DNA of 64,000 nt from Desulfomonilia bacterium (GTDB taxonomy: Bacteria; Desulfobacterota; Desulfomonilia; UBA1062). Position numbers and translations under genes: made by a program. The notes beneath the pieces are model-generated. The model searched no databases. It was not told the DNA's origin and worked only from the letters and a program-made list of their open reading frames with translations. The stretch covers positions 704,001 through 768,000 of the forward strand of contig CAXXDQ010000004.1 in NCBI GenBank assembly GCA_963664325.2, in the 5' to 3' direction. Positions 39,641 to 63,528 of this stretch are shown one piece after another. Position 1 is the first letter of the stretch; every line of letters starts with the position of its first letter.

Positions 39641-40007
39641 ATTATCAGAAAAGAAAATGAATGATATTTCATCTGGGATTCTCTTTTTCGTGATCCAAAA
39701 TAAATTTAACAAACATCCAGACCTTGCCTTGATGATTGCTTGGCGAATGGAGGAAAGTTTTTTGTTCTTTTGAAATTGAAAATATTTTCCATAATTAGAA
39801 AGAAAATTCCCATTAAAAATAAAATCCTTTCCGACGAACATTAAAATATTTAATCAACTTATTAATATTTCTAAATTTATTTTATTAAAGAATTTTATGG
39901 CATTTTGCATAATTTTTGCATATAATTTGTACAGAATAATCTGAATTTTATTTATTTAATGACCTGAGGTCTATAAAACCCAAGCTTGATGCGAATAGTT
40001 TTTTCAT

Positions 40008-40040
40008 CTTAGAAAAGTAACTAATTCAACTTAGAAAAGT
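40008..40040. repeat. 11-bp direct repeat CTTAGAAAAGT with 22-bp period
   Basis: Exact copies at 40008-40018 and 40030-40040 upstream of cassette 1. Confidence 0.7.
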
Positions 40041-40207
40041 CTTTTATACACCGCTACTTATGGCGGACTTTTATGATGCTTCAACGTTCCCAAAAACTGT
40101 TTTTTTTGATACAATTTAAAGTGCTGCTACTAGGGTTCTTTAAGCGCCACTGGATTAAAGGACTGCGGCCTTTGTGGCTGCAGTCCTAGAAAATTTTGGA
40201 GGTTATT

Positions 40208-40243
40208 ATGAACATGGGGTTAATGAACAGGGATGGACCATGA
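40208..40243 (+). CDS. Putative leader peptide MNMGLMNRDGP
   Basis: GGAGGT RBS after a strong hairpin (40159-40187); homologous uORFs at 60105 and 60239. Confidence 0.5.
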   Translation: MNMGLMNRDGP

Positions 40244-40340
40244 TGCAATCTCATTTAATCAGAGAGTTTTCAAGTTTCCCGGAAAAAATATGGACTGCAA
40301 CCATTAGCGTTGCATGTCAACTAAAATGCAGGAGGTAACA

Positions 40341-43300
40341 ATGAAGAGAAATGCAATTTTTCTGGCCATGCTTTCGATCATGGCCTTATGGTTGAGCGGC
40401 TGTATAACTTCCAGCAGCCCAAAAACCTCGGAAGTCACAATTAAAGTAGGCGATTCTCAAACATTTACGGTTTCCGGTGTTGGGAACGGCCCCTATACAT
40501 GGACCAAGGCCGGCATACCAGTCAGCGGGAACACGACTGCATCCTACACCTACACGGCGCTTTTGGAGGATTTAGGCACATTTTCTATAAAGGTGACTAC
40601 AAAAGATTCTCTTAATGTCACATCTAGCTTAGTATGGACGGTGAATGTAGTCAACGACCTGCCGCCTATAGCCAATGCCGGCCCTGACCAGAATCTCTAT
40701 TTCGGAACTCTGGTACAGCTCGACGGCAGCTTGAGCTCCGACCCTGAAGGGCAGCCGCTTTACTATCTCTGGGAGATAGTCGGACGGCCGGCAGGCAGTT
40801 CCGCTTCACTTGACAATCCCAATGCCGAGAAACCAACCTTTGTCCCGGACAAGCAGGGCGCCTATACAATCCGCCTGATTGTCAACGACGGCAGGCTGAC
40901 AAGCAGCGCTGATACGGTCATAATCAATTCCTTTACAGATTACGGTCCCCCAACAGCCAATGCAGGCCCTGACCAGAGCATCGTCTTCGGCAATATGGTC
41001 AGTCTGGACGGCAGTGCAAGCACAGACCCCGAAGGCACCCCGCTTACCTATATGTGGGCTATTGATTCAGGCCCGGCCGGAAGTGCTGCAGCGCTCGACG
41101 ATCCCACAAGCATGACACCGAAATTCACTCCCGACAAAAAAGGCGTGTATGTAGTCAGCCTGGTTGTAAGCAACGGCCTTTATGACAGCGGTATAGATCT
41201 TGTCACCATTGTTGTCTACAACACCATGCCCGTAGCCCGGGCCGGCGCTGATGTAACTATAGCAGATCTGGGCGGTTCGACAACGCTTGACGGCAGCCTT
41301 AGCTCCGATCCTGACGGCGACCCGATCAGCTATTCATGGACAATCATTTCGAGGCCGTATGGAAGCACAGCCGCCTTGAGCGATCCGTCCATCGTAAACC
41401 CGACCTTCACACCCGACAAAAAGGGCGCATATACCATTCAGCTGGTCGTGAGCGACGGCGATCTTTTCAGCAACGCTGACACAGTCATCGTCACCTGCTC
41501 CAACCATGTGCCGGTGGCCAATGCGGGTACTCCAATACATATTCCGTTCGGAAATACGGCACAGTTAAATGGCAGTGCCACTGACCCTGACAGCGACCCC
41601 ATGACCTATGCATGGACAATAACCGACAAACCGTCAGGAAGCATTGCAATGCTCTCCAATGCCACCATTCTCAACCCTACATTCAGGCCTGATGTGCAGG
41701 GTACTTATACGCTATCACTTGTCGCGACGGACAATACAGGTCTTTCCAGCGCACCATCATTTGTAACCGTATCTACCGAAAACCACCAGCCGGTTGCCGA
41801 TGCAGGCGACGACATCATCATGCCGAGCAATACCTCGGTGGGGTTAAACGGCAGCGGAACAGACGCTGACAGCGACCCTCTGACCTTCACATGGAGGGTA
41901 ATCACAGCCCCGATGGGCAGCGGCGGCGACAGCACGATCTCCGACCTTAACATCGCTAACCCGACCTTCACGCCTGATAAGAAGGGCGACTATCAGCTCG
42001 GCCTTATCGTGAACGACGGACAGATAGACAGTGCTGAAAGCACTATGAAGATACACGTAATTAACAATCCGCCTGTTGCTGATGCAGGTCCGACCCAGAA
42101 CGTCCACTATTCAACCCGTTTCGTCACTCTTGACGGAAGCGGCAGTTTTGACGTGGACGGAGATCCGCTGACCTACTCATGGAGGATCGTATCAAAGCCA
42201 TCCGGCAGCACAGCCGTGATCGTTAACCCGACAGATATTCACCCGACCATCACTCTGGATGTTCCTCAGGGATCCTGGGTGATCGGCCTGACTGTCAACG
42301 ACGGCGCTATTGACAGTGCGGAAAGTACGGTCAGCCTCAATTATATCGAAAATCAGCCCGTGGCTAATGCGGGTCCGAACCAGAGCAGGCATACCGCCTA
42401 TGGTGTTCCCAATACCTTCCAGCTCGACGGAAGCGGCAGTTCGGACCTTGACGGAGACGCACTGACCTACGCATGGACGCTCAAATCAGCTCCATCCGGC
42501 AGTACGGCGGCACTCTCCAACCGGTATATCGTGAACCCGACCATTACGGCTGATAAAGTCGGAGCTTATGTGATAGGTCTGATCGTCAATGACGGCCTCA
42601 TGAACAGTGCAGAAAGCACGGTCACCATCACCTATACCAATAACACGCCGGTGGCCAACGCGGGTCCGAACCAGAGCAAGCATTCCCCGCTTACCTTCCA
42701 GCTCGACGGAAGCGGCAGTTCAGACCTTGACGGAGATCCGCTGGCCTATACGTGGAGGGTCATATCAAAGCCATCCGGCAGCGCATCAGTGCTCTCCAGC
42801 ACGAATATCGTTAACCCGACCATCACGGCCGACAAGCTGGGATCATATGTGATCGGCCTGACCGCCAGCGACGGCTTTGTGAACAGCACGGAAAACACGG
42901 TCACCCTCACCGTCACCAATGCTGCACCGGTGGCCAATGCAGGCCCGAACCAGAGCAGGCATACAAGCCTGACCTTCCAGCTCGATGGCAGCGGCAGTTC
43001 GGATGGAGACAGCGACCCGCTGACTTACTCATGGAGGATCATATCAAAGCCGTCCGGCAGCGCATCAGTGCTCTCCAGCACCACCATCGTTAACCCGACC
43101 ATCACGACCGACAGGCCCGGGGCTTATTCTATAGGCCTGACAGTGAACGACGGCTGGGTCAACAGTACGGAAAGCACGGTCACCATCACCTACACAAACA
43201 ACGCACCGGTGGCCAATGCCGGTACTTATGCGGATGTCCTCTATGCAAACCGCAATGGCGTCACGCTCAACGGCGGGGCAAGTTCCGATCCTGACGGTGA

Positions 43301-43910
43301 CGCTATCACCTACGCGTGGACGATGACAGGGAAACCGTCCGGCAGCGCAGCAGCGCTGGCAAATGCCAACACCGCAACCCCGAGCTTCAACATGGATGTT
43401 CCAGGAACGTACAGCTTCAGCCTGGTCGTGAGCGACGCCTGGGTCAGCAGCAGCGCCAGCACGGCCTCGGTATCCAGCTCAATGAGTGCGTTATCTACCA
43501 ACTGGGACGATAACGTGATGTCGCCGTGGTACCAGATAACCAAGTCCAACATGGGAACCTGCGGAATCGCCACCAACGAATCCCATTCGTCACCGAGGAG
43601 TTTCAGGACCCAGAGCTGCACCGGTGTCCTCTGCGGTTCCGGCACCTACAAGTTCGGCAGGGATATAAATAAATACGTCACGACAATAAGCTTCTGGTCC
43701 ATGACATATTTCACATATTCCTATCCCAATGTTGACCTGTACGAGGGCAGCACCAAACTTGCCGACATCAACAATTACAACTCCTGGACACAGAGTACGT
43801 ATACTTACAACCGTATGTTCGGGACCCTTGCATTCCAGGATAACGGCAGCTATGCAGTTACAGGAAGAACCTGGAACGTCGATGACATAGTCATCAATGT
43901 TTGGAACTAA
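40341..43910 (+). CDS. Cassette 1 gene A: lipoprotein, 10 PKD/REJ-like repeats plus C-terminal jelly-roll-like domain
   Basis: Lipobox LSGC; ten PxAxAG...LDGS.S.DPDG...YxW repeats; ends VDDIVINVWN. Confidence 0.85.
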   Translation: MKRNAIFLAMLSIMALWLSGCITSSSPKTSEVTIKVGDSQTFTVSGVGNGPYTWTKAGIPVSGNTTASYTYTALLEDLGTFSIKVTTKDSLNVTSSLVWTVNVVNDLPPIANAGPDQNLYFGTLVQLDGSLSSDPEGQPLYYLWEIVGRPAGSSASLDNPNAEKPTFVPDKQGAYTIRLIVNDGRLTSSADTVIINSFTDYGPPTANAGPDQSIVFGNMVSLDGSASTDPEGTPLTYMWAIDSGPAGSAAALDDPTSMTPKFTPDKKGVYVVSLVVSNGLYDSGIDLVTIVVYNTMPVARAGADVTIADLGGSTTLDGSLSSDPDGDPISYSWTIISRPYGSTAALSDPSIVNPTFTPDKKGAYTIQLVVSDGDLFSNADTVIVTCSNHVPVANAGTPIHIPFGNTAQLNGSATDPDSDPMTYAWTITDKPSGSIAMLSNATILNPTFRPDVQGTYTLSLVATDNTGLSSAPSFVTVSTENHQPVADAGDDIIMPSNTSVGLNGSGTDADSDPLTFTWRVITAPMGSGGDSTISDLNIANPTFTPDKKGDYQLGLIVNDGQIDSAESTMKIHVINNPPVADAGPTQNVHYSTRFVTLDGSGSFDVDGDPLTYSWRIVSKPSGSTAVIVNPTDIHPTITLDVPQGSWVIGLTVNDGAIDSAESTVSLNYIENQPVANAGPNQSRHTAYGVPNTFQLDGSGSSDLDGDALTYAWTLKSAPSGSTAALSNRYIVNPTITADKVGAYVIGLIVNDGLMNSAESTVTITYTNNTPVANAGPNQSKHSPLTFQLDGSGSSDLDGDPLAYTWRVISKPSGSASVLSSTNIVNPTITADKLGSYVIGLTASDGFVNSTENTVTLTVTNAAPVANAGPNQSRHTSLTFQLDGSGSSDGDSDPLTYSWRIISKPSGSASVLSSTTIVNPTITTDRPGAYSIGLTVNDGWVNSTESTVTITYTNNAPVANAGTYADVLYANRNGVTLNGGASSDPDGDAITYAWTMTGKPSGSAAALANANTATPSFNMDVPGTYSFSLVVSDAWVSSSASTASVSSSMSALSTNWDDNVMSPWYQITKSNMGTCGIATNESHSSPRSFRTQSCTGVLCGSGTYKFGRDINKYVTTISFWSMTYFTYSYPNVDLYEGSTKLADINNYNSWTQSTYTYNRMFGTLAFQDNGSYAVTGRTWNVDDIVINVWN

Positions 43911-43929
43911 TTACATTATGGTAATGAGT

Positions 43930-44010
43930 GGGGAAGGCCCAGGCCTTCCCCGTGTACACACACCCGTGTGGGAGCCGGAGGAACTGGCCCCACCGACGGG
44001 GCATTAAATA
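43930..44010 (+). promoter_or_regulatory. Conserved A-B intergenic double stem-loop (copy 1)
   Basis: GGGGAAGGC/GCCTTCCCC stem without U tract plus second hairpin; repeated before 51384 and 63529. Confidence 0.55.
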
Positions 44011-44025
44011 AGATGGAGGTAATGC

Positions 44026-46155
44026 ATGAAGCGAAACATTAATTTATTACTGATAATGATGATACCGCTGATGGTATTGTCGGGGTGCATCCTCACAACC
44101 ACCCCGAAAGAGGGTACTCCCATCAGTCTGGTCTGGGGCCAGAAACAGGCGTTCTCGGTCTCGGGCATGGGTACAAATCAATGGTACGTGGACAGTAACC
44201 TTATAACTGGTGAGACCAAAGCCAAGTATACCTTCAACAGCTACCTGTTCGGTCTCGGCAGCCACGAGGTAAAAGTCATAAACACTTTCGCACTGGGTGG
44301 CGGAGAGGCTGTCTGGACGGTCAATGTTAGTTCGACCCCGACCACTGTACCCCTGGCCACGGGCTGTGCGGATATCATGAACGCAGGCCTCATATGCGAC
44401 ACCACGCTCAACTGCAGCGACACGGTCCCTGAAGGTTCGGTGATCAGCCAGACACCGGAAGCGGGTGCCAGCGTGCCGGCAGGAACAACGGTGCACCTGA
44501 GCATCTCCAGCGGTTTGTGCACCAATCATGAAGTGGCTGTTCCGGCCGCAACGAGCTGTGCGGATATTGAAGCAGCGGGCCTTGTATGCAGCGTTTTCCA
44601 TAGCTGCAGCAACGAAGTCCCGGCAGGCATGGTAATCAGCCAGGCCCCGGTAGCGGGCACCATGGTAGTACCCGGAACGACAGTGACGCTTGAGATCTCC
44701 ACAGGCCCGTGCACGGGCGGGGAGATAGCGGTACCCAACGCTACAAGCTGTGATGATGTCGAGGCTGCAGGCTTTGTTTGCAGCCGCGAAAGGGAATGCA
44801 ACAATACCGTGCCTGAAGACGATGTAATCCGCCAGTCTCCGGCCCCCGGAGTCATGGCAATGCCCGGCACAACGGTAACCCTGACCCTGTCTACGGGGCC
44901 ATGTCCGCTGCTGGTGCCGGATGCGACATCCTGCTCCGAGCTCGAGGCCGCAGGCCTTGTGTGCAACCTGGTTGAAACCTGCAGCAACGAGGTGCCTGAG
45001 GCAGGAGGATTCATAAGCCTGAGCCCGCCTGCAGGTACGCCTACGGAACTGGGTGCGGTTGTGACACTTGTACTGTCGACCGGACCATGCACAGTGGAGG
45101 TGCCGGCCGCCGCGAGCTGTGCCGATATTGAGGCCGCCGGCCTTTTGTGCAGCATGAGCACACAGTGCAGCGATACCGTTGCCGAAGGTTCGGTGATCAG
45201 CCAGGATCCTGCGCCTGGTGCCATGGTGTCTCCGGGATCAACGGTTCAACTGGTCCTTTCGAGCGGTCCGTGTACAATACAGCTCCCTGCGCCAACAAAT
45301 GTTCAGGCAACGGATGTCGTACTGACCTCTCAAACCGACCCGCTGCTGAACAGCAACTTCAACAATAAGGTAAGGGTCACATGGAATGCGGTGCCTTATG
45401 CGCAGGCCTACAAGATATACCGTTCAGATTCACCCACAGGAACATATGACCTTGTCGGAACAGTCATAGCTCCTACGACATCATTTAACGACATGCAGAC
45501 CGAGGTGCTCACGCTCCCGACATGGCCCGACCCGCTCACCACTGAGGCTCTTGATACTTATGAGGCCGCAGCTAGGGCAGTTGTAAACAATTTCAAGAAC
45601 TTCAAGTACTATAAGGTCAAGGCCTGCAGTGCCGATCCTTTCCACCCCAACAGTGAGATGAGCGCCTATGATGAAGGCCGCATGGACTACACGCTTGAGG
45701 AATTCTACACCATAACCACAGGAGTGATCGAGGGGATTCCGATGGCAAAGATGATACTGGCTGCCAGTCCCATGGCAATAGGCACCAACATGTACTTCTA
45801 TGATTCGTGCGGCAGCGGGCAGATGCATGTTTCCATTACCGAGGACAGTCCTGCCAATATGAGTATTACCATTTCCAATTTCGTCGAATCCCTGGTCTTC
45901 ACTTCAGGCGGCGGCATCAACTGCAGTGAGAGCGGCGGCAGACGCATGATAATAAACAGCCTGGTCTCATCTGAAGATATCGATTTAGACATAAACGGAA
46001 CCCTGACAGGTTCGATGGATTTCACGGGCAATTATGCCGGCAAGTTCACGAGCATGAGTGTTCCTGTCACCGGCGGGGTGCTGCAGACCGGGACATGCAC
46101 CGTTATATACAACGGCCAGACTTCAACAGGCCACACCTGCAGTTTCTTCGACTAA
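44026..46155 (+). CDS. Cassette 1 gene B: lipoprotein, 5 Cys-rich PASTA repeats, Fn3-like domain, C-terminal domain
   Basis: Lipobox LSGC; VP...AGL.C...CS.TVPEG.VISQ.P.AG..V..GTTV.L..S.G.C x5; PTNVQA..VTWNAV..YKIYRS. Confidence 0.8.
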   Translation: MKRNINLLLIMMIPLMVLSGCILTTTPKEGTPISLVWGQKQAFSVSGMGTNQWYVDSNLITGETKAKYTFNSYLFGLGSHEVKVINTFALGGGEAVWTVNVSSTPTTVPLATGCADIMNAGLICDTTLNCSDTVPEGSVISQTPEAGASVPAGTTVHLSISSGLCTNHEVAVPAATSCADIEAAGLVCSVFHSCSNEVPAGMVISQAPVAGTMVVPGTTVTLEISTGPCTGGEIAVPNATSCDDVEAAGFVCSRERECNNTVPEDDVIRQSPAPGVMAMPGTTVTLTLSTGPCPLLVPDATSCSELEAAGLVCNLVETCSNEVPEAGGFISLSPPAGTPTELGAVVTLVLSTGPCTVEVPAAASCADIEAAGLLCSMSTQCSDTVAEGSVISQDPAPGAMVSPGSTVQLVLSSGPCTIQLPAPTNVQATDVVLTSQTDPLLNSNFNNKVRVTWNAVPYAQAYKIYRSDSPTGTYDLVGTVIAPTTSFNDMQTEVLTLPTWPDPLTTEALDTYEAAARAVVNNFKNFKYYKVKACSADPFHPNSEMSAYDEGRMDYTLEEFYTITTGVIEGIPMAKMILAASPMAIGTNMYFYDSCGSGQMHVSITEDSPANMSITISNFVESLVFTSGGGINCSESGGRRMIINSLVSSEDIDLDINGTLTGSMDFTGNYAGKFTSMSVPVTGGVLQTGTCTVIYNGQTSTGHTCSFFD

Positions 46156-46167
46156 GAGGAGGTTATA

Positions 46168-48659
46168 ATGAGAAAACACATATTATTGATTTTTATCGTC
46201 ATGTTAACAGTTATGCTGGGAGGGTGTATAATAGGAAAAACACCTTCATTAGATAATGTCACCATGTCCTATGGCGAAACGAAGACATTCAGCATAAAAG
46301 TAATAGGGGACCATACCTATACCTGGACCCTTGACGGTGTTCCCCTTTCAGAAACAGGGAAATCCTATAATTATACAGCACTGGCAGGCAAACATATCCT
46401 CATAGTCCGTGCGACATACACCTATGGTGAGGACACTGAGGTCTGGAACATCTTTGCAAACAGTCCGCCAGCCGCCAATGCCGGGCCGACCCAGACCGTC
46501 ACGGAGGGTATAACCGTAACGTTAGACGCCTCCAATTCAACAGACCCTGACGGCGATATAGCCTCCTATCTCTGGGAACAGACAGGAGGCCCTGCAGTCA
46601 CACTCTCCGATGCAAGTGCCATACAACCTACGTTCACATCGCCCATTGTACCTATCGGAGGGGCAGCTCTCACCTTCAAAGTGACCGTAACTGATGCAAC
46701 CTCTCTGACATCAACCGCCACCACGATAGTCAATGTAACCTGGTCGAACAGGCCGCCAACAGCTAATGCCGGTCCTGACCAGACGGTCGGCGAGAATGTA
46801 ACCGTGGCCCTTAACGCATCTGGCTCGACAGACCCGGATGACGGGATCGCATCCTATTCATGGGAGCAGATAGAAGGGCCATTGCCTTATGTAACGCTAT
46901 CAGACCCGGGTGCGGTGAACCCGACATTCACGTCCCCCTATGTAGGCATCGGTGGAGAAGCGCTTGTCTTCAAACTGACAGTAACCGATGTCGGAGGCCT
47001 CAAATCGACCGATACCGTCATCGTTAATGTTACCTGGTCAAACCTGCCGCCGACAGCTGAAGCAGGCCCGGACCAAGCTGTCTCAGAGGGCAGCATTGTA
47101 ACGCTCGATGCTTCATCTTCCGTCGATACGGATGACGGCATAGCATCCTACGCCTGGTTACAGACTGGCGGCGCTGTGGTCACACTCTCCAATCCTGCTG
47201 CCGTGAAGCCGACATTCACAACCCCTGATGTGGGAATGGCGGGGGATGTCCTGACCTTTGAGCTCACCGTAACCGATAATGGAGGACTCCAAGCGACAGA
47301 TACAGTAACAATCACAATCAACTGGGTAAACGCACCGCCGGTGGCCAATGCGGGTCCTGACCAGAGCATAGTCAAAGATTCAGTGGTAACACTAGACGGC
47401 ACGGCCTCAACCGATCCTGACGACGGGATTGCTTCATATCTCTGGCAGCAGATAAGCGGGCCGGCAGTAACACTTCTCAATGCAAACACAGACACCGCAA
47501 CATTCACGGCAAACGTTGCAGTCAATTCAGTGCTTACCTTCAGACTGACCGTAACCGATGTCGGCGGACTGACAGGAACAGATACATGCTCAGTTACAAT
47601 TCTCGCTGCCCCCATATACGTCAAGATATCCGGCGGGATTTCCTACTCCGTAGCCATCAAGAGCGACGGTACTCTCTGGGCCTGGGGGCTTAACGCATAC
47701 GGCCAGCTGGGTGACGGGACCACGATAGACAAGAATGTTCCCACTCAGATCGGCACTGATACCAACTGGGCTTCAGTAGCAGCCGGGGATCGCCATACAG
47801 TGGCCATCAAGACTGACGGTACGCTCTGGGCCTGGGGATACAACGCAAACGGCCAGCTCGGCGACGGAACCACAGCCCTGAAGATAGTTCCTATTCAGAT
47901 CGGCACAGGCACAAACTGGATTTTAGTGGACGCAGGGGCCAGGCACACAGTGGCCATGAAGAACGATGCCTCTATCTGGGCCTGGGGTGACAACAGCAGA
48001 GGCCAGCTTGGCGATGGGACCACAACTACCAGGCTGGTTCCAACCAAGATCGGCAGCAACACCTGGGTCATGATAAATGCCGGCGCCCTTCATACCGCGG
48101 CCATTGACACTGCCGGTAAGCTCTGGACCTGGGGTGCCAACAACTACGGCCAGCTTGGCGACGGGACCCTGGTGGACAGACTGGTTCCCACTCATATCGG
48201 TACAGACACAACCTGGGTGCAGGTAAACGCCGGTGACAACCATACAGTGGCAATAAAGGCCGCCGGGACCCTGTGGGCCTGGGGCTATAACAACTACGGC
48301 CAGCTCGGCGACGGGACCACGGTAAACAAGACGGCGCCCCCACTCAGATAGGCATTGCAACCTCCTGGGCATCCGGCAGATGCCGGGACTTCGCATACTG
48401 TTGCAGTAATGACCGACGGGACGCTATGGGCCTGGGGTTATAACAGCAACGGGCAGCTTCGGGCTCGGAGACACGGTCCAACAGAGCAGCCCCAGCGCAG
48501 GTAGGCTCGGACACCGATTGGGCTACCGCGGATGCCGGCTACTGGCACAGCCTGGCCAAGAAGGCGGACGGGACGCTTTGGACCTGCGGTTATAACAATA
48601 AAGGTCAGCTCGGCGACGGGACCACTGTTGACAAGTGGGTCCTGACACAGATCTGGTGA
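46168..48659 (+). CDS. Cassette 1 gene C: lipoprotein, 4 PKD-like repeats plus 7 RCC1 repeats (several indels after 48335)
   Basis: Lipobox LGGC; [13 protein letters not shown] x5 in the ORF, blades 6-7 continue in shifted frames to TGA 48657-48659. Confidence 0.8.
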
Positions 48660-48778
48660 AGCTTAAGGAATACAGGTCATGAAACTATATAACTTAAATA
48701 GAAAAATATTATGGCTCCCAGAAAAGGTAAGGACTGCAACTTCAGCGTTGCATGTCAAATAAAATGCAGGAGGTTACA

Positions 48779-51263
48779 ATGAAGAGAAATGCAATTTTGC
48801 TGGCCATGCTATCAATCATGGCAATATGGTTGAGCGGCTGTATCCTTTCAAGCAGTCCTACAGCCACGGAAATATCACTCAAGGTAGGGGACTCGCAGAA
48901 GTTCGCTGTCACTGGATCAGATGAACGGCCCGCTACACTTGGTTCTTGAACGAAAACCCGATCAGCGGTGTTACCACCGCTTCCTATACCTACCTGGCGA
49001 TCATGGCGGACATAGGCCAGAACGTCATCAAGGTGGAGACACAGGACAAGGTTTCGGGCAAGATCGTGAGCAAGGAATGGACTGTCCAATGTCTCAGAAG
49101 ACCAGCCGCCGGTCGCCAATGCCGGACCCGACCAGGACGTGATCTTTAACGGCAGTTCGGTTTGCTCTTGACGGCAGCGGCAGCTTCGACCCTGAAAGCG
49201 AGTCCCTGACCTACATCTGGGAGATAGTCGCGCAGCCTGCAGGCAGCACCTGCTCACTCGACAATCCTGGCGCCATTATGCCGAGCTTCGTCCCTGACAA
49301 GGAAGGCGCCTATACAATACGCCTGATAGTCAATGACGGCAGGCAGAACAGCCTTCCTGACGCAGTCGTCATCAATGTCTATACAACTTTCAGCCCGCCG
49401 GTGGCCAATGCCGGAACCGATCAGAATGTTCTTTTCGGCAATGACACTGTTCTCGACGGAACGGCCAGCACCGATTTCAGCGGCCACGGGCTTACCTACA
49501 AATGGACGATCGATTCAGGCCCGGCCGGCAGCGCCGCAACACTTGACGATCCCACAAAGTCCCAGCCGGTGTTCACCCCGGACAAGAAGGGCATGTATGT
49601 AATAAGCCTGGTCGTTAATGACACCCTTAACGACAGCAACACTGACTGGGTAGTGATTAACGTCTACAACAACGCACCCATCGCCAGGGCCGGTGTGGAT
49701 ATCGTTGTCCCGGACCTCGGCGGCACGGCTTATATCAACGGCAGTGCAAGCTCAGACCCTGATGGAACACCGCTGAGCTTTGAGTGGACACTCACCTCAA
49801 AGCCCATGGGCAGTACTGCAGAACTCAACAACGCAAACATCGCAACCCCGACTCTTAATCCTGACAAAAAAGGTGCGTATCTAGTAAAACTGGTCGTGAG
49901 CGACGGCGACTTGAGCAGCTCTGATATGATCATGGTCACCTGCTCTAACCAGGTGCCCGTGGCAGAAGCAGGGGACCCCATCACCATCCCGTTCCTGGGC
50001 ACGGCGCAGCTTAACGGAAGCGGCTCAGACCCTGACAATGACCCTATTACCTATTCATGGTCAGTAACCTCGGCTCCGGAAGGCAGCACGGCCGCAATCT
50101 CCAATCCCAATATCGCGAACCCGACCTTCACTCCTGACATCAAGGGTGTGTATGAATTGAGCCTGATAGTTACCGACAACGATGTGCCGCCAATTTCCAG
50201 CGCACCCGACACGGTAACCATCACTACCACCAACCACGCACCTGCAGCCAATGCCGGCGCAGACATCAACATTAACCTGTTCGGCACTGCGCATCTTAGC
50301 GGCAGCGGTTCGGACATCGACGGAGACCCGATTGTGGGCTATGCATGGACTATCATAAACACGCCATTCGGCAGCACCGCAACTATCTCCGATCCGGCCC
50401 TGGCAAACCCGACCTTCACCCCGGATAAGAAGGGTGACTATCAGCTCGGTCTTATCGTGTTTGACGGAACAGACTGGAGCCTTGTTGCGGACACCGTTAT
50501 GGTTCATGTATTCAACAACCGGCCCATTGCCGTCATCACCGGCCCGGCCCAGCCCACCCATTATGCCAACCGCACTTTCACGCTCAGCGGTTCATCCAGC
50601 TACGACCCGGACGGCGACCTGATTCGGGGCTACAGGTGGGATTTGGTCAGCAAACCGGATGGCAGCAGTTTAGGAATCAGCAATCAGTACGCCGTGAGCC
50701 AGACCTTCACGCTCGATAAGCCCGGAACATATCTGGTCGACCTGTACGTGAACGACGGCATAATAGAAAGTACTGCCGCTGAATTTACCATCACAACGCC
50801 AACCGCTACGTACACCACATCCTTTGAGAGCGGTTCCACATTGGACAGCGGAGGCAACCAATGGGTCGAGTACAATACCAGCAACATGGGTACTATTGGG
50901 ACCACCACTTCTCAATACAATTCAGGATCGTATAGTTATGTAATAAAAGACTGTAATAATTTGTTGGGCAATTGCGGGTCTGGTTATGGCAAGTTAACCA
51001 ATTATACTGGGGCATACGTCATGTCAGTTACCTACTATGCATATACTCCTTATCTGGAAAAGTTCCCGGCTAATGGAGCCGGCCTTTTCGAGGGTGATAC
51101 CAAGCAGGTCGATTATCCCGGTGTAAACTCCTGGACACAGTATTCATGGGCTCCCAACCGGGCCGTAACGGATATTAATTTCAGGCTTAACGGGACCGGG
51201 GGTGCTACCTGGATATCCCATGTTATGTACTTCGATGACATCAGTGTCACTGTTTGGCAGTAA
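48779..51263 (+). CDS. Cassette 2 gene A: lipoprotein, 6 PKD/REJ-like repeats plus variable C-terminal domain (4 single-base insertions 48915-49165)
   Basis: Signal peptide nearly identical to A1; ORFs 48752, 48946 and 49278 join when four bases are removed; ends FDDISVTVWQ. Confidence 0.78.
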
Positions 51264-51383
51264 TTACAGTATGGTAATGCAGGGGGAAGGTGTGAAGCCT
51301 TCCTCCCCGCATAAACATACCGGTGCTGGGGCCTTTGGAATTGGCCGCTTGAGCCGGGCATTAAAATAAGACGGAGGTAATGC

Positions 51384-53537: not shown

Positions 53538-53546
53538 GAGGAGGTT

Positions 53547-56054
53547 ATGATGAGAAAATACATAGTATTAATTTTATTCGTAGCGCTGTCAGCCATGCTG
53601 AGCGGGTGCATAATAAGCAGGTCGCCCTCAACAAATACTGTCAATTTGCCTTATGGCAGTACGAAGACTTTTAGCGTGTCGGCCTGGCCAAGCGGCACCT
53701 ATACCTGGACTCTGGACGGAGACGTCATGCCGGTTACGGGGAATTCCTACAATTACACCGCTGAATCGGGAACGCATTTCCTCGTAGTGCGCGTACCGAA
53801 ATCCGCTATTGGCGAGGAGGTGCAGGCCTGGACCATCATCACTAACTATCCTCCAGTTGCCGATGCCGGAGGGAACCAGACTGTCGGAGAAAATGTGACC
53901 GTGATGCTTGACGGGTCCAATTCGACAGACCATGACGGCGATATAACCTCCTATGCCTGGGTGCAGACGGATGGCCCCGAGGTCACCCTTTCCGATGCGA
54001 GTGCGGTCCAGCCGACATTCACATCCCCGACTGTGGGCATGAGCGGCGCAGCCCTCGTATTTGAACTGACCGTGACCGATTCCACAGGGCTGACATCCAC
54101 CGCCAGCACGATCGTAAATGTCACCTGGTCGAATATGCCGCCGACAGCCGAGGCAGGCCCGAACCAGACTGTCCCTGATGGCAGTGTGACGGTAACCCTT
54201 GACGGCTCAGCATCCACGGACCCGGATGACGGGATCGCCTCCTACTTCTGGAAACAGACAGGCGGCCCCAGAGTCTTCCTGGACGATGCAACCGCAGTGA
54301 AGCCGACATTCGTGACCCCTGAAATCGTTCCAATAAGCGGGGAAGCAATCACCTTCAAACTGACGGTGACTGACAACGGCGGTCTGAAAGACAGCGATAC
54401 TGTCATAATCAACGTCAGCTGGTCCAACCTGCCGCCTACAGCCAATGCAGGACCTGACCAGACCGTCCCTGAGGGAACCCTGGTAACACTTAACGGGTCA
54501 GGTTCCACCGACCCGGATGACGGGATAGCTTCCTATGCCTGGGTGCAACTGGCAGGCCCGGCGGTCACGCTATCAGACCCGACCGCCATCAATCCGACAT
54601 TCATGCCACCGGATGTGAACATACCCGGAGCAACCCTTACCTTCCAGCTTACAGTAACGGATTTGGGAGGCCTCCAGTCGACAGACACCGTGACGATCAA
54701 TGTCACATGGGTTAACGCGCCGCCGGTGGCCAATGCGGGTCCTGACCAGAGTGTTGAGAGGTACTCGACGGTATACCTCGACGGTACGGGCTCAACCGAC
54801 CCGGATGCCGACGGTATCGCCTCGTACCACTGGATACAGACCGCGGGAGCTACAGTAACGATAAACAACGCCAACTCGGCCATTGCGAATTTCTTTACTC
54901 CCGCTACAGTCGGGGCGTCGTTTACCTTCCAGCTGACCGTGACCGATCCGGGCGGACTGTCATCAACGGATACCTGCATAGTTACGATCAATTCCAACGG
55001 ATCTTTCTTCAAGGCGATATCCGGCGGTTTCAGCTTCTCCCTGGCGATCAAGGTTGACGGGACACTCTGGGCATGGGGCTCCAATGCATATGGCCAGCTC
55101 GGCGACGGAACCACGGCAGACAAGATGTTCCTCACACAGGTGGGCTCCGATAATGACTGGGCCTCGGTGGCCGCCGGGGATTACCATGCCCTGGCCATCA
55201 AGACCGACGGATCGCTCTGGGCCTGGGGCTTTAACGGCAACGGACAGCTCGGTATGGGGGACACTATAACTAGGCTGGTCCCCACACAGGTGGGCACAGA
55301 CAATGACTGGACCGCAGTGGATGCAGGCGCATATCATTCCGTGGGTATAAAGGCCGACGGGACGCTCATGGCCTGGGGGTACAATGCCTTTGGGCAGCTT
55401 GGCAGCGGGTCCATGATAGACGCCAATGTCCCGTCATACGTGGGCGACGGTCTGCCCGGCTGGAGCAAGATAGACGCAGGTGCCTATCATACTGCCGCCA
55501 TCGACGGCAGCGGTAAGCTCTGGACCTGGGGCAAGAACACTACAGGCCAGCTCGGAATCGGGAACACTGTAAACCAGTATTCTCCTGTGCAGGTCGGCAG
55601 CGATACCACCTGGGCAAGCGTAAGCGCTGGCGATGAACAGACCATTGCCAAAAAGTCGGCAGGCACACTCTGGGGCTTCGGCAGGAACAACTTCGGCCAG
55701 CTCGGTGACGGCAGCACTACAAACAGGACGTCCCCGGTTCAGATAGGCAGCGCCACCAACTGGAGCAAGATGGATACCGGGACCACACATACCGCGGCCA
55801 TCAAGACAGACGGAACGTTATGGTGCTGGGGCTATAACAGCAACGGCCAGCTCGGCGACGGGACCACAACCAACAGGCTTGTCCCAACGCAGATCGACGG
55901 TACAGGCTGGCTTACGGCTGATGTCGGGCGTTTCCGCACACTGGGCATCAAGACCGACGAAACCCTCTGGGCCTGGGGCCTCAACAACTTCGGCCAGCTC
56001 GGCGATGGAACCACAGTGGACAAGTGGGTACCCACCCATATAATCATCCACTGA
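53547..56054 (+). CDS. Cassette 2 gene C: PKD-like plus 7-bladed RCC1 lipoprotein
   Basis: Lipobox LSGC; 4 PKD-like repeats; 7 W.WG.N..GQLG repeats. Confidence 0.88.
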
Positions 56055-56108
56055 GACCGGCGAGGTGGGCAGGTAATAGATTCAAAAAGTAATTAAGCAA
56101 TAAATGAA

Positions 56109-56150
56109 AGGCACGGCCAGGGTTGTTGACCCTGGCCGTGCCTGCTTTTT
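56109..56150 (+). terminator. Intrinsic terminator ending cassettes 1+2
   Basis: 14-bp stem AGGCACGGCCAGGG/CCCTGGCCGTGCCT followed by GCTTTTT. Confidence 0.8.
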
Positions 56151-56471
56151 ATGGAAAAAACCGCTGCATATTTTTTATAAATCAGACAAATACGATTTTT
56201 TTAAATTAATCCGGTTTTTTCGTTATCAAAGTTGTACAAGGGTCTTCAAGGGTAGTTTCTATTGAACCTGATATCAACAAAGAAATAAATAAAGGAGTTT
56301 ATTGACTAATTATATCGCATGATTATTGTAATAGGTAGTTCAGTAACCAATAAGTTAATGGTGAGACTATACTGCCTCTGTACATGTCTCTGCCTGGTGA
56401 TGAGCCGCGGCTATGGCGCAAGCCTGTGATGACGCATGACATGGTTGTAAGGAATCATAGGACAGATCGGT

Positions 56472-59081
56472 ATGAATGATAGGGAACGGCTCCTCGAGAC
56501 AATTTTGGATTCCATTACTGCGCATGTGGCAGTTCTGGATAAAAGCGGCAGGATAATCTTTGTAAACTCAGCATGGAAAACTTTTGCCCGGGAGAATGGC
56601 TCTAAGAATGAAGATGCATATCTGGGATTTGATTACCTGGCCGTATGCGAGGCGGCTTTAGAGCGAGAAAATGACGAATCCGCCGCAGCACTTCAGGGTA
56701 TCCGTGAAGTGCTCAATGGCGCAAGGACAGAATTCAGCATGGTATATCCCTGCCACTCGCCGGTCATGAAGCGATGGTTCATCATGCGCGCGTCGGCCAT
56801 GAATGAATACAATGGCGGCATTGTAATCGTCCACAATGATATCACCGAGCGAAAACTGGCCGAGGAGGAGTTGCGCGCAAGCGAGGAGAAGTACCGGAAC
56901 CTGTTCGAGAACCTGGCCGAGCAGGTGCAATTATGGAAACTTGTCCGCGATCAGGCCGGCAACATCCAGACATGGCGTCTGGTGGACATCAACCCCGCCG
57001 GAATGAAAGCCTGGGGCAAGACGCAGGCCGAAACCGTTGGCAAGACCGCGGATGAAATCTTTCCCGGCGCAACGGCTTTTTTCATGCCGATCGTGCAGAA
57101 GATATTCAGGGAAGAAGTGCCCTATTCGCGGGAGTCTTATTTCCCGATGAGCAACCAGTATCTGCATATGATCGACGTGCCGCTTGGCGAATACTTCATC
57201 ACTACCGGCATGGATATCACCGAGCGCAAACGGGCGGAGATGGATCTGCTCAAATCCCAGAACCTGCTCAAAGAAACCGGACACATAGGCAAAGTGGGCG
57301 GCTGGGAGTTCAACATAGACACCTTTGAGCAAACTTGGACCGATGAAGTTTACCGTATCCATGAACTGGGTCCGGACTTCAGGCCGACAGTGGAAAATGG
57401 AATCGCCTTTTACGCCCCTGAAGCCCAAGTGACTATTGAAGAAGCCGTGCGGCGCTCAATCGAACTTGGTGAACCATTCAACGTCGAATTGCCATTCATA
57501 ACCGCCAAAGGAAACCGCCGCTGGGTGCGCGTAATCGGCGAGAGGGATCCCGATAACCGCCGTGTATTCGGCTTTTTCCAGGACATCACCGAACGCAAAC
57601 TTGCCGAGGAAGCCCTGGAGCGGACGAGCAGCACGCTGGCTGAGGCCCAGAAGATCGCGCATCTGGGCAGTTTCGAGTATATCACCGCGAACCGATCGAC
57701 AATCTGGTCAGAGGAACAGTACCGTATTTTCGGTCTCGACCCCATAGATCCTTCGCCGGAGTATGATGTGATGCTTAAGGAGTTCATTCATCCCGACGAT
57801 GCGGCCTCGATGCATGAAGAATTTACGAATGCGATGCAGAACTGTGCTGCCTACGAACACGAACACCGGATCGTGCGGCCGGACGGAAGCGTGCGCTGGG
57901 TATTAAGCAGCGCGCATCCTTACTTTGACGGGCAAGGAAAACTTGCCCGGTACATAGGCATAACGCTGGACATCACGGAACGCAAAGAGGCCGAGCTTGC
58001 ATTAATCAAAGAAAGGGCATTCCTGGAAAGGGTTATGGAAACCGTTCCTGCAGGTGTATTAATATTAGATGCCAACGGGAAGATCTCATATGCAAATTCA
58101 CAGGCAGAGCGAATCCTTGGCTTCTCCCAGGATGAAATCAAGAAGCAACCCTATAACGACCCTGCCTGGAAAAAAACAGATTTAGAAGGGAACTATTTCC
58201 CGGTTGAGGAATTGCCCTTCAGCCGGGTAGTGTCTGCCAGAATACCGGTATATAACGTAGAGCATGCCATCGAAAGGCCGGATGGTAAAAGGGTATTCCT
58301 TTCAGTAAATGCAGCTCTGCTCCTGGACAATAAAGGAAACCTGGAAGGTGTGGTAGAAACAATAAACGATATCACCGCTCTCAAGCAGGCGGAAAAGCGT
58401 ATTCACGCATTTTCCCGCAAACTGTTGAATGTAAGAGAGCAAGAACGCATGCAGATCTCAACCGCCCTTCATCATGACCTTGGATTTGTTACCATAAATG
58501 TAACCTCACGGCTTCAGGCAGCAAAGGATTATCTCCAGGCAAGCAGATTCAGGAAGGCGCTCCAGGTCTTGGAGGAGGGTGAACGCATGTTTACCGAGGC
58601 GATAAGACAATTGAAAAAACTGGCTATTGAACTCCGTCCTCCCGACCTGGATCTCCTCGGACTTCAGAGTGCATTGCGGCAATATTTTGCACAGGTATCA
58701 AAGGGAATTCCCATGAAAATTTCCTTTTCCGACGCCTCCCGGGGCATAACTATCCCTCCTGATTTTCAGACCGTTATCTTCCGGATAGCGCAGGAGTGCC
58801 TGAACAATACAATTCAGCATGCAGGAGCGCTGCATGCAAGAGTGCGCTTATCCGCATCAAAGGGTATGTTGAAACTGTCTTTCACTGATGATGGCCGGGG
58901 TTTCAATCCGGAAAGCTTCATCATCAATCCGGGAGATCATATGGGGTTGCTGACCATGCAGGAAATGGCCAGGGATTCCGGCGGGGATATAAAAATAGAA
59001 TCAAAACCTGGCAAAGGCACAAAAGTCTCTGTAACGGTTCCTTTGAACATGGAAGGTGAAACAAGTGAGGTGGCAAAATGA
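56472..59081 (+). CDS. Soluble multi-PAS sensor histidine kinase (HisKA_3/NarX-like)
   Basis: About five PAS/PAC units ending DITERK-like; ER..IS..LHHDLG; QE.LNN..QHA, DDGRGF, GKGT; no TM segment. Confidence 0.88.
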   Translation: MNDRERLLETILDSITAHVAVLDKSGRIIFVNSAWKTFARENGSKNEDAYLGFDYLAVCEAALERENDESAAALQGIREVLNGARTEFSMVYPCHSPVMKRWFIMRASAMNEYNGGIVIVHNDITERKLAEEELRASEEKYRNLFENLAEQVQLWKLVRDQAGNIQTWRLVDINPAGMKAWGKTQAETVGKTADEIFPGATAFFMPIVQKIFREEVPYSRESYFPMSNQYLHMIDVPLGEYFITTGMDITERKRAEMDLLKSQNLLKETGHIGKVGGWEFNIDTFEQTWTDEVYRIHELGPDFRPTVENGIAFYAPEAQVTIEEAVRRSIELGEPFNVELPFITAKGNRRWVRVIGERDPDNRRVFGFFQDITERKLAEEALERTSSTLAEAQKIAHLGSFEYITANRSTIWSEEQYRIFGLDPIDPSPEYDVMLKEFIHPDDAASMHEEFTNAMQNCAAYEHEHRIVRPDGSVRWVLSSAHPYFDGQGKLARYIGITLDITERKEAELALIKERAFLERVMETVPAGVLILDANGKISYANSQAERILGFSQDEIKKQPYNDPAWKKTDLEGNYFPVEELPFSRVVSARIPVYNVEHAIERPDGKRVFLSVNAALLLDNKGNLEGVVETINDITALKQAEKRIHAFSRKLLNVREQERMQISTALHHDLGFVTINVTSRLQAAKDYLQASRFRKALQVLEEGERMFTEAIRQLKKLAIELRPPDLDLLGLQSALRQYFAQVSKGIPMKISFSDASRGITIPPDFQTVIFRIAQECLNNTIQHAGALHARVRLSASKGMLKLSFTDDGRGFNPESFIINPGDHMGLLTMQEMARDSGGDIKIESKPGKGTKVSVTVPLNMEGETSEVAK

Positions 59082-59731
59082 GTATTCAGGTAATGATAGC
59101 CGATGACCACCAATTAGTCCGCGATGGTCTTAAATTCATCATCGGACATGTCAGCAATGACATCGAAGTGGTCGGTGAGGCATCGAATGGTTATGAGGTA
59201 TTGGAATTAGCGGGAAAAATCTTAGTAGACGTAATCATACTTGATATCACCATGCCCAGGCTTAACGGACTGGAAACACTGCGCAGGCTGATCGCACAAA
59301 GACCCAAAACAAAGGTCATCATACTGAGCATTTACGATACTCAGACCATGGTGGAAGAGGCCATAGACGCCGGAGCCTTTGGGTACATCACCAAGGAGAC
59401 TGCCAGCAAGACCATCGTTGACGCCATTTATGCGGTATTCTCAGGACATTACTATTTCAGCCCTGATATAACCCATCTGTTCATTAAAAAAACCGCGAAG
59501 AGAGGAAGGATACGGGAGTCAACAAACGGTCCTGAATCTCTAACGATTCAGGAAAAGAAAATCATGAGACGTATTGCCGAGGGGTATTCAACCAAGGATA
59601 TCGCTACCGAATTCGGACTGTCCGTGAATACGATCTCAACCCACAGAAAGCATCTGATGGCCAAGCTCGATATCCATAAGCAGGCCGATCTGGTGCGCTA
59701 TGCCATCAGAAAAGGTTTTGTCAAGACCTAG
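59078..59731 (+). CDS. NarL/LuxR-family response regulator
   Basis: ADDH, LDITMP, YITK receiver; LT..E...IAEG.STK.IA...TISTHR..LM.KL HTH. Confidence 0.93.
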   Translation: MSIQVMIADDHQLVRDGLKFIIGHVSNDIEVVGEASNGYEVLELAGKILVDVIILDITMPRLNGLETLRRLIAQRPKTKVIILSIYDTQTMVEEAIDAGAFGYITKETASKTIVDAIYAVFSGHYYFSPDITHLFIKKTAKRGRIRESTNGPESLTIQEKKIMRRIAEGYSTKDIATEFGLSVNTISTHRKHLMAKLDIHKQADLVRYAIRKGFVKT

Positions 59732-59739
59732 CAAGCAAA

Positions 59740-59840
59740 GTGCATTTCATGCACCGTCCCGCACATTTCCAAAATGAGGGGAAAAGGTGAGTAGAACGCA
59801 CCCTATATGATGATTGGAATGCAGGGTGCATAACATGCAC
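59740..59840. promoter_or_regulatory. Two GTGCAT-N3-ATGCAC palindromes
   Basis: At 59740-59754 and 59826-59840. Confidence 0.55.
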
Positions 59841-59896
59841 TGATGCACTGTCTGCCGGTCCTGATGATTATTCAAAAAATCACCTAACATGCCTGG

Positions 59897-59922
59897 AACA
59901 ATCACCTGTTCAGGTGATTGTT
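59897..59922. promoter_or_regulatory. Perfect 12-2-12 inverted repeat, candidate operator
   Basis: AACAATCACCTG-TT-CAGGTGATTGTT. Confidence 0.6.
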
Positions 59923-60104
59923 AAATATGAAAACATAACTGATAATATTGATTGGAATAATTATATAAATAAATTCATATTTTAGACATCATCGAAGAAA
60001 AGGTTCTCAGGTTCAACACGATTCTTAGGTAGGATACGCTTTTGCTTCACTGTTTAAGGGATTCATCCAAAGTGATGCATCCCAGTATAATTTGAGGTGG
60101 CGTT

Positions 60105-60248
60105 ATGTTCTTGGGGATAGTGAACAGAGAAGGGCCAAAATCCAATGTTAACCAGTCTGCAAATTTTCTGAGATTTTCCCCGGAAGAGACAGGATGCAAT
60201 CCGAAGGATCGCATCACTGTGAAATTGGAGGTGTTGCTATGTTCTTGA
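60105..60248 (+). CDS. Putative leader peptide MFLGIVNREGP... (47 aa)
   Basis: GAGGTG RBS after hairpin; homolog of 40208 and 60239 uORFs. Confidence 0.45.
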   Translation: MFLGIVNREGPKSNVNQSANFLRFSPEETGCNPKDRITVKLEVLLCS

Positions 60249-60355
60249 GGACAATGAACAGGGATGGACCAGGATACCCAGTAAACCAGTCAGAGATTTT
60301 TCTAGGCATAAACAAAAGATATGGGCTGCAACCTTCAGCGTTGCATGTCAAATAA
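60239..60355 (+). CDS. Putative leader peptide MFLRTMNRDGP... (38 aa)
   Basis: GGAGGTG RBS after hairpin; starts 133 nt before gene A3, as the 40208 uORF does before A1. Confidence 0.5.
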   Translation: MFLRTMNRDGPGYPVNQSEIFLGINKRYGLQPSALHVK

Positions 60356-60371
60356 AATGCAGGAGGTAACA

Positions 60372-63410: not shown

Positions 63411-63528
63411 TGACATCACGGCAGCAATTGGAGGGGAAGGCGTGGAGCCTTCCCCATATAAACACCCCCACTGCGGGACCGGCGCAAATGGCCCCCAGGC
63501 AGGGCATTAAAATAAACGGAGGTAATGC

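Follow-up and report, generated by a model that had tools for sequence, protein, structure and literature searches.

The stretch of DNA analysed here, called the window below, comprises 64,000 nt of contig CAXXDQ010000004.1 (positions 704,001 to 768,000, forward strand) from the Desulfomonilia bacterium assembly GCA_963664325.2. It contains several cassettes encoding predicted PKD-repeat surface lipoproteins, and the leaders of two cassettes, those headed by genes A1 and A3, carry short repeated units with upstream open reading frames (uORFs), which are the subject of this study. A1 and A3 contain many PKD/K319L-type repeats, and downstream of them lie genes for a PASTA-repeat protein and then a PKD+RCC1 protein. 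The N-terminus of A1, MKRNAIFLAMLSIMALWLSGC, reads as a lipoprotein signal. An earlier sequence-only reading of this DNA had called these proteins giant; at 1189 aa for A1 and 1012 aa for A3, they are large rather than giant.

Three uORFs, each preceded by a Shine-Dalgarno (SD) sequence, can be read directly in the sequence, with start codons at 40208 (u1, before A1), 60105 and 60239 (u2 and u3, in tandem before A3) (Table 1). The ATG of u1 lies 133 nt from that of A1 (40341), u2 lies 134 nt from u3, and u3 lies 133 nt from the ATG of A3 (60372). The 11 codons of u1 (40208-40240) encode MNMGLMNRDGP and are followed directly by TGA. u2 encodes 47 aa starting MFLGIVNREGPK..., with its 3' end 8 nt past the ATG of u3, and u3 encodes 38 aa starting MFLRTMNRDGPG..., with TAA at 60353. 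This layout, including the ribosome-binding sites, the spacings and the stop after the proline of u1, agrees with the earlier description. That description also stands in placing the differences between the core codons AAC AGG GAT GGA CCA and AAC AGA GAA GGG CCA at three third positions only; one of them, GAT to GAA, nevertheless changes D to E. Column identity among the three units is 76%. Past two stops, the former frame of u1, the same as that of u3, is still legible (...KKYGLQPLALHVN, then a stop), so that u1 is a shortened copy of the same unit. Allowing zero or one mismatch, the 18-nt core occurs at these three places only in the 4.3-Mb genome.

Table 1. Coordinates of the leader units, start-region hairpins and associated genes in the window
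Feature	Position	Strand	Remarks
Candidate sigma-70-type promoter of the A1 leader	39897..39926	+	ATGGCA-18-TATAAT; 10/12 consensus matches
Hairpin 5' of u1 SD	40159..40187	+	12 bp; -26.9 kcal/mol for 66-nt piece; architecture as in the gene-proximal hairpins
u1 SD	40198..40203	+	GGAGGT
uORF u1	40208..40243	+	Includes TGA stop
Gene-proximal hairpin before A1 SD	40292..40318	+	Covariation across 25 start regions
A1	40330..43910	+	SD AGGAGG 40330-40335; ATG 40341; PKD-repeat lipoprotein, 1189 aa
Gene-proximal hairpin before A2	48731..48756	+	A2 ATG 48780; NRxGP uORF absent there
Hairpin 5' of u2 SD	60058..60083	+	
u2 SD and ORF	60094..60248	+	SD GAGGTG 60094-60099; ORF 60105-60245; TGA 60246-60248
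Hairpin 5' of u3 SD	60190..60219	+	Same stem on the minus strand scored terminator-like
u3 SD and ORF	60227..60355	+	SD GGAGGT 60227-60232; ORF 60239-60352; TAA 60353-60355
Gene-proximal hairpin before A3 SD	60323..60349	+	Covariation
A3	60361..63410	+	SD AGGAGG 60361-60366; ATG 60372; PKD-repeat lipoprotein, 1012 aa

Orthologs were searched in 41 genomes using the first 143 aa of A3 as the query. Close full-length matches to the A3 N-terminus are found only in three other species of the same genus (G001, G002 and G003), and in each of them one uORF stands 131-134 nt 5' of the ATG of the best ortholog. The uORF peptides start MFMRTMNRNGPLF... in G001, where the ATG is replaced by GTG and the SD is retained, MCMGTMNRDGPFL... 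in G002 and MCLGSMNRDGPLF... in G003, and all three ORFs end at a TAA inside AGGAGGTAACAATG, 2 nt before the gene start. The motif is absent from 15 further upstream regions of paralogs. A strict pattern of SD, start and core, which does not capture u2 with its GAGGTG SD, is present in 4/4 genomes of the genus and in 0/118 other genomes of the class, and its reversed control gives 0 matches. A profile built from the five long uORF peptides retrieved a single ORF, P0001, from 5.8 billion clusters, and seven matches from 1.84 billion representatives, three of which are real (P0001, P0002 and P0006). The remaining four were dropped as long proteins matching outside the core; P0005, the one inspected, is a repeat protein. 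P0002 (89 aa) consists of two units fused in frame, MFLGKMNRDGPL... and MLRGTMNRDGPDNRVNQ...KRYGLQPFALHVK, both with MNRDGP. P0006 (57 aa) reads MFLGKMKRDGYSS... and then MFLGSMSSRDGP, the ORF ending at that proline, and the 47 aa of P0001, MFLGIMKREGLL..., form a distal unit similar to u2. With P0002 as the query only the self-match is returned, and P0001, P0002 and P0006 each stand alone in their cluster.

Together, these searches bring the total to 11 units, comprising three in the window, three in orthologous leaders and five in metagenomic ORFs, with tandem units in at least four of the eight known loci. A metagenome scan with the A N-terminus gave 377 pattern matches, the only confirmed one being L045, a paralog with just 265 nt upstream and no uORF there. 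Scanning genome contigs gave six loci, where the sole new leader, L048, is 292/300 identical to L009, comes from a near-identical strain of G003 and adds nothing. The contigs compared with positions 39900-40420 hold only paralogous start-region fragments, and the raw DNA run yielded 0 reads and is uninformative. As judged from the sequences covered, the conserved leader unit is restricted to one genus.

Two kinds of related ORFs lie beside this family. A genome-wide scan for short SD-preceded ORFs with R[AGSDENP](PP|GP) gave 15/2324, including the three units described here, when about 10 are expected by chance on a rough estimate, so there is no sign of a further family. Among short SD-preceded ORFs outside the window, those at 649526 and 231882 on contig C4 of G000 have R-x-G/P-P at residue 7 (MQAAAIREGPMLQRHKRAGP... 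and MQRWSLRDPPG...). Separately, the paralog leaders L029, L030 and L037 (in G003, G001 and G002) have a GGGGG-type SD and an ATG about 95 nt before the gene. Their peptides (MVFSQMIDF..., MAISPVD followed by a stop, and MAISAADCF...) are poorly conserved, which is a uORF design without a conserved peptide.

Comparison of the 11 units reveals that conservation is concentrated in a short block. Arg8 and Gly10 are found in 11/11 units, Met6 in 10/11, Pro11 in 9/11 and Asn7 in 8/11, and position 9 is D in eight units, E in two and N in one. The two units without Pro11, P0001 (KREGL) and the first unit of P0006 (KRDGY), are both distal copies in tandems, and both have Asn7 changed to Lys; this could mean that such distal copies are in decay, or else that the motif matters less than proposed. 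The second unit of P0006 has an in-frame insertion of one residue before RDGP and ends at the proline as u1 does, so that a stop directly after Pro has two independent occurrences among the 11 units. The tail after the conserved block changes frame between u2 and u3. The five units of P0001, P0002 and P0006 are known at the protein level only, and the codon tests rest on the six units with DNA. In all six of these the SD and the start codon are retained, the SD being GGAGGT in five and GAGGTG in the remaining one (u2), and the other two reading frames of the unit contain stops.

Within codons 6-11 of the six units, seven columns vary: five at third positions (four of them synonymous), two at first positions and none at second positions. 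The hypergeometric probability of this bias is p=0.013, and it is attained in just two of the 113 gap-free windows of 18 columns, this one and its next in-frame neighbour. In the four-species leader alignment, 10/234 windows reach the same third-position bias, some of them inside the gene. We also used a column-permutation test, in which the history of each column is preserved and its codon position is not. For codons 6-11, this gives p=5e-5 for amino-acid similarity (BLOSUM) and p=0.002 for synonymous pairs, and for codons 2-11 the corresponding values are p=0.001 and p=0.035. No coding signal is found for codons 12-20 (p=0.49). Among the four orthologs, 14/18 columns of codons 6-11 are invariant, compared to about 47% for the whole leader. 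The leader as a whole is also well conserved, with 78% mean column identity across the four species, which tempers the coding tests. We read the uORF as translated, and selection at the level of the peptide, M-x-x-x-x-M-N-R-[D/E/N]-G-P, is reasonably supported. Selection seems limited to these first 11 residues, since codons 12-20 carry no signal and two units stop right after Pro. The earlier proposal of selection on the peptide is supported over 11 units, with R-x-G-P as the best-kept part and with changes placed according to the coding frame in the six DNA units.

The hairpins that precede the SD sequences have a different distribution. Many paralogs of gene A are present in the genome, and we compared the 75 nt 5' of the ATG for 26 gene-A starts and the six uORF starts. 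About 22 of the 26 gene-A starts have a hairpin 12-17 nt 5' of the SD, followed by an A-rich spacer, and the start region of gene B is arranged similarly. Across 25 aligned start regions (22 gene starts and the three uORF starts of the window), six of nine stem pairs show compensatory changes, 76.7% of the cells are pairing as against 27-41% with the partner slid, and the covariation score is matched by 0/500 shuffles. A2 and A4 (the latter outside the window) keep only the gene-proximal hairpin and SD, without an NRxGP uORF. Hairpin, A-rich spacer and SD are therefore a generic, covarying start-region module of the gene family, separate from the leader peptide: they are common to about 22 paralogs and occur in A2 and A4 without the uORF. 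Contrary to the earlier view, they are not specific to the leader. As to the role of this module, our guess is a 5' stabiliser or a processing landmark; the genome encodes RNase E/G as well as RNase J, the latter scoring 406 bits against a cut-off of 400.

Motifs resembling the leader core are rare in the proteome. We counted tetrapeptides in this genome's 2378 ORFs that reach 250 aa or more. RDGP is observed 3 times (11.2 expected), REGP 4 times (11.6), RNGP once (8.1), RAGP 3 times (15.7), and RAPP and RGPP not at all (8.9 and 9.0 expected), and the reversed control PGDR is observed 22 times (11.2 expected). Pooled, R[DEN]GP is found 8 times when 30.9 are expected, the third lowest of 4128 a[DEN]bc patterns, with R[DEN]PP the lowest. 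After tripeptide correction the figures are 8 and 16.7 (p=0.015, rank 54/5043), and K[DEN]GP is not depleted (33 vs 27.8, likewise corrected). Such a shortage would fit an R[DEN]GP that this organism has difficulty in translating, but the evidence is modest.

The motif and its position recall nascent peptides that arrest the ribosome. As described for SecM, the stalled ribosome has Gly165-tRNA in its P site and Pro166-tRNA in its A site; the critical residues are Arg163 and Pro166, and residue 164 contributes its backbone carbonyl (PMC10951299). In the account of YwcI, which has RAGP, Gly is in the P site at the stall and P91A abolishes it (PMC10987492). For ApdA and ApdP, the Arg is described as irreplaceable, with Ala to Asp (also Glu in ApdP) and Pro to Gly partly permissive, and RDPP as underrepresented in proteomes (PMC12992588). 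Six to seven residues N-terminal of the core are reported to contribute to the stall (PMC10951233). By analogy, the leader pattern would mirror these requirements, with its invariant Arg and Gly, near-invariant Pro, variable second position and seven preceding residues.

Arrest of the ribosome by the nascent leader peptide, of the SecM/RAPP type, is the best reading we can offer; it is unproven, and we hold it tentatively. It is favoured because the uORF in cis has a conserved peptide, not a mere presence, and because the conserved part ends with R-x-G-P; the stalling itself is inferred from these features. According to this reading, the units would be translated uORFs in the long 5' leaders of PKD-repeat surface lipoprotein operons. 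Arg8 would be held in a pocket beside the peptidyl-transferase centre, with Gly10-tRNA in the P site and a Pro11-tRNA in the A site that does not accept the chain, and the seven residues ahead of the Arg would serve as a short N-terminal adjacent region. The parked ribosome itself would then act on the leader RNA, through its stability or through access of Rho or nucleases. Such an effect is preferred over an erm-type opening of the gene SD because this SD is not predicted to be sequestered and because two units end right after Pro. In the full-length copies, the stall would secondarily set a limit on how many ribosomes cross the proximal hairpin, their translation ending 2-17 nt short of the gene ATG.

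Several points weigh against arrest. The six DNA copies come from four related species (plus a near-identical strain), and seven variable columns carry the whole coding test. Two of the 11 units lack both Pro11 and Asn7. The core has D, E or N where proven arrest cores have A or G, and R[DE]GP would join two substitutions that are each only partly permissive elsewhere, as described in PMC12992588. Among the natural RAPP-like tetrapeptides covered by the in vitro tests of PMC10987492, the majority gave no arrest. A nascent chain of 10 residues is very short for ligand-free arrest, folding found no convincing RNA switch between the stall site and the gene SD, and a general shortage of x-G-P accounts for about half of the R[DEN]GP depletion.

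An unlikely alternative to arrest is that translation of the uORF or ribosome occupancy as such is what matters, by protection against RNase J/E or by coupling or occlusion via the proximal hairpin, with the peptide kept for another reason such as efficient early elongation. In four of the five gene-proximal units with DNA, the ORF meets no stop until 2 nt (G001-G003) or 17 nt (u3) before the gene ATG, both nucleases are encoded, and L029, L030 and L037 have an SD and ATG upstream with a poorly conserved peptide. Plain translation would, however, leave unexplained why residues 6-11 are kept with synonymous changes when codons 12-20 have no coding signal. It also does not account for the two units that end after Pro11, which precludes passage through the hairpin, or for the shortage of R[DEN]GP in the proteome.

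It is quite improbable that the block ATGAACAGGGATGGNCC is an RNA element, such as a protein or small-RNA site or a leader structure, in which the ORF is incidental. The 78% identity of the leader, as high as the 74-77% amino-acid identity of the protein N-terminus, extends over about 430 nt in the four species, and some blocks elsewhere, the 34-nt start region among them, do not vary at all, third codon positions included. Moreover, RNAalifold pairs the uORF SD region with codons 10-16, and by our own reading an upstream GGTCTAT could pair with ATGGACC. Yet the variable sites of the block follow a codon frame that is fixed independently by the SD and start, and the second unit of P0006 has a whole-codon insertion inside it. 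The pairing of GGTCTAT with the core was rejected, as the A3 leader lacks this block and paralogs devoid of the uORF possess it; its shorter core GAGGTC[TG]AT gives many chance matches in a loose genome-wide scan. GGA sites of the CsrA type were also rejected, with two GGA in the core block of u1, u3 and G003, one in G001 and G002, and none in u2; conservation of nucleotides such as GGA motifs rather than codons, which the sequence-only reading had named as a result that would speak against it, is not what the homologous leaders display. There is no Rfam match at gathering scores in the window; with E-values, none is found in 39850-40400, and the sole match with E<=1 in 59730-60430 is to an irrelevant lncRNA model (Xist exon 4, E=0.31). 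Finally, the leaders fold no better than shuffled sequences (z = -1.56 and -0.52).

That the units are neutral remnants of tandem start-region duplications, alike through the closeness of the species, is very doubtful. Their distribution is narrow (one genus), the hairpin and SD of u1 resemble a paralog start region on contig C3, u1 has two in-frame stops, and the motif is lost in the distal copies P0001 and P0006 (first unit). This reading is at odds with the excess of invariant columns in codons 6-11 over the whole leader, with the retention of SD and start in all six units with DNA, and with P0002, whose units diverge strongly from u2/u3 after residue 11-20 and both retain MNRDGP. It is highly implausible that the product is a small peptide set free to act independently, for instance as a signal or as a partner of the A, B or C proteins: the sequence is conserved and two units would release the exact 11-mer, but the other units have 27-36 extra residues conserved in neither sequence nor frame, there is no export signal, and P0002 fuses two units into one ORF.

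The 5' hairpin of ompA and the STAB-SD of cryIIIA are 5' stabilisers. They share with the present regions a hairpin at a fixed distance 5' of a strong SD, here repeated before each gene of the family, and an SD or ribosome parked in the leader could likewise protect the mRNA, given that RNase J and RNase E/G are encoded. Unlike them, the leaders described here encode a defined conserved peptide. Drug-dependent leader peptides of the erm/cat type have a short SD-preceded leader ORF and hairpins between leader and gene. The proposed stall at about codon 10 of such an ORF, with hairpins before the gene, would be similar, but the downstream gene is not a resistance gene, sequestration of its SD is not predicted and the leader lacks a +x+ motif. 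In fact, an erm-like switch was rejected: in both the minimum-free-energy and the centroid folds the gene SD is for the most part unpaired, and the leaders do not fold better than shuffles. An amino-acid attenuator of the trpL type was rejected because there is no codon run and no terminator-like site on the + strand between uORF and gene, and a rare-codon pause because AGG is the commonest Arg codon (38%).

TnaC stalls at termination, at Pro-stop. A general arrest of this type was rejected for the present leaders, since a stop follows Pro in 2/11 units. Termination-arrest leaders (TnaC, PepNL and the NSP-stop and NAP-stop peptides, the latter two described as stalling at the stop codon in PMC10987492) do share the short uORF, and their Pro-stop recurs in u1 and the second unit of P0006 (PMC10987492, PMC11890864); apart from the low frequency of Pro-stop, they differ in the unrelated upstream sequence of the leader.

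The closest likeness is to SecM and the RAPP-like peptides ApdA, ApdP, ApcA and YwcI. The RAGP of SecM and YwcI conforms, like the leader core, to R-x-G-P and shares its order of Arg, Gly and Pro. RAPP-like peptides also need a short adjacent N-terminal stretch, of six to seven residues according to PMC10951233; the seven residues before the Arg of the leader, among them the conserved Met6 and Asn7, may play this part. The depletion of the motif in proteomes noted for this class (PMC12992588) is likewise found in this genome. The differences lie in position and context. Position 2 of the leader core is D/E/N rather than A or G, and the core occupies residues 8-11, whereas in the known peptides it is close to the C-terminal end of a protein of 50-170 aa that is secreted or membrane-bound. 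Monitoring substrates such as SecM, MifM, VemP and ApdA/P are described as having an N-terminal signal or transmembrane segment and a spacer of more than 30 aa, upstream of sec/yidC genes (PMC10987492). The leader has no signal, transmembrane segment or spacer, so that release by a pulling force is impossible, its units occur in tandem, and the downstream genes encode surface lipoproteins, not Sec/YidC components.

A secretion monitor was accordingly ruled out, with the Arg at residue 8, no signal peptide or room for one, and PKD-repeat lipoprotein genes downstream. The sequence-only reading had proposed an RxGP stalling leader coupled, as in SecM, to export of the downstream proteins. Selection on the peptide and depletion of the motif favour the first part. 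The export coupling does not hold, for there is no signal peptide and no spacer able to leave the ribosome. With slightly more reserve than for arrest itself, we suggest that the leader may be the shortest self-contained member of the SecM/RAPP class, in which a leader ORF opens with seven residues and R-[D/E/N]-G-P, has no export signal, comes in single or tandem units, and controls surface lipoprotein operons. In that case, the acidic or amide residue in second place of the core would extend the motif as known. This control would possibly operate through a ribosome parked on the long leader, not through unmasking of an SD. A search of the literature found no description of an R-D-G-P leader, which is not proof of absence.

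Known RAPP/RAGP arrest peptides are found at the C-terminal end of proteins destined for secretion or the membrane, where they serve as monitors of the export machinery. If the present reading is true, the core and seven residues would suffice for arrest in nature, and the allowed arrest core would widen to R-[D/E/N]-G-P. Arrest chemistry would then be tied to a different logic, with no pulling force, with tandem units and with surface-protein cassettes beside a two-component system, and the unit would provide a compact, portable stalling tag. If there is no stall, the leaders would represent a clean bacterial case of a uORF with a conserved peptide that needs another explanation.

The A1 leader contains further conserved sequence. 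If the candidate promoter were used, its 5' untranslated region would be about 400 nt long. This candidate is weak, and promoter-like sites are not in excess in the region (4 vs 3.6 in shuffles). Upstream of the uORF, the block TGAGGTCTATAAAACC is conserved in the four species and found also in paralog leaders without the uORF, as are, within the A1 leaders, a CTTAGAARA block and a terminator-like hairpin with a T-run. The A1 start region TAAAATGCAGGAGGTAACAATGAAGAGAAA (30 nt, continuing into GCAAT past a single variable column) is fully conserved, down to the third codon positions. These leader and start blocks, at 39965-39980, 40051-40066 and 40322-40357, suggest further signals at the RNA level. 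The A-B intergenic regions (43911-44025 and 63411-63528) contain a GC-rich terminator-like hairpin (GGGGAAGGC...GCCTTCCCC). After it and ahead of gene B come another hairpin, an A-rich spacer and an SD, which repeats the layout seen at the start of gene A.

Positions 56472-59731, which lie between cassette 2 and the doubled A3 leader and end just 5' of the latter, encode a histidine kinase with multiple PAS domains and a response regulator of the LuxR type; the pair is a likely transcriptional regulator of the cassettes. A2 (ATG 48780) is split into at least three frames, the first of which stops at 48947-48949, and a 661-aa ORF (ATG 49278) reaches 51263. C1 stops at 48351 and RCC1-like coding goes on in another frame to about 48660, so its 3' end looks frameshifted. 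The broken A2 and the C1 3' end reflect either true pseudogenes or faults in the assembly. The B and C proteins (starts 44026, 46168, 51384, 53547 and 63529) share the lipoprotein-type signal and first domain of A, with 31-44% identity to the A3 N-terminus, and all three cassette genes are N-terminally paralogous.

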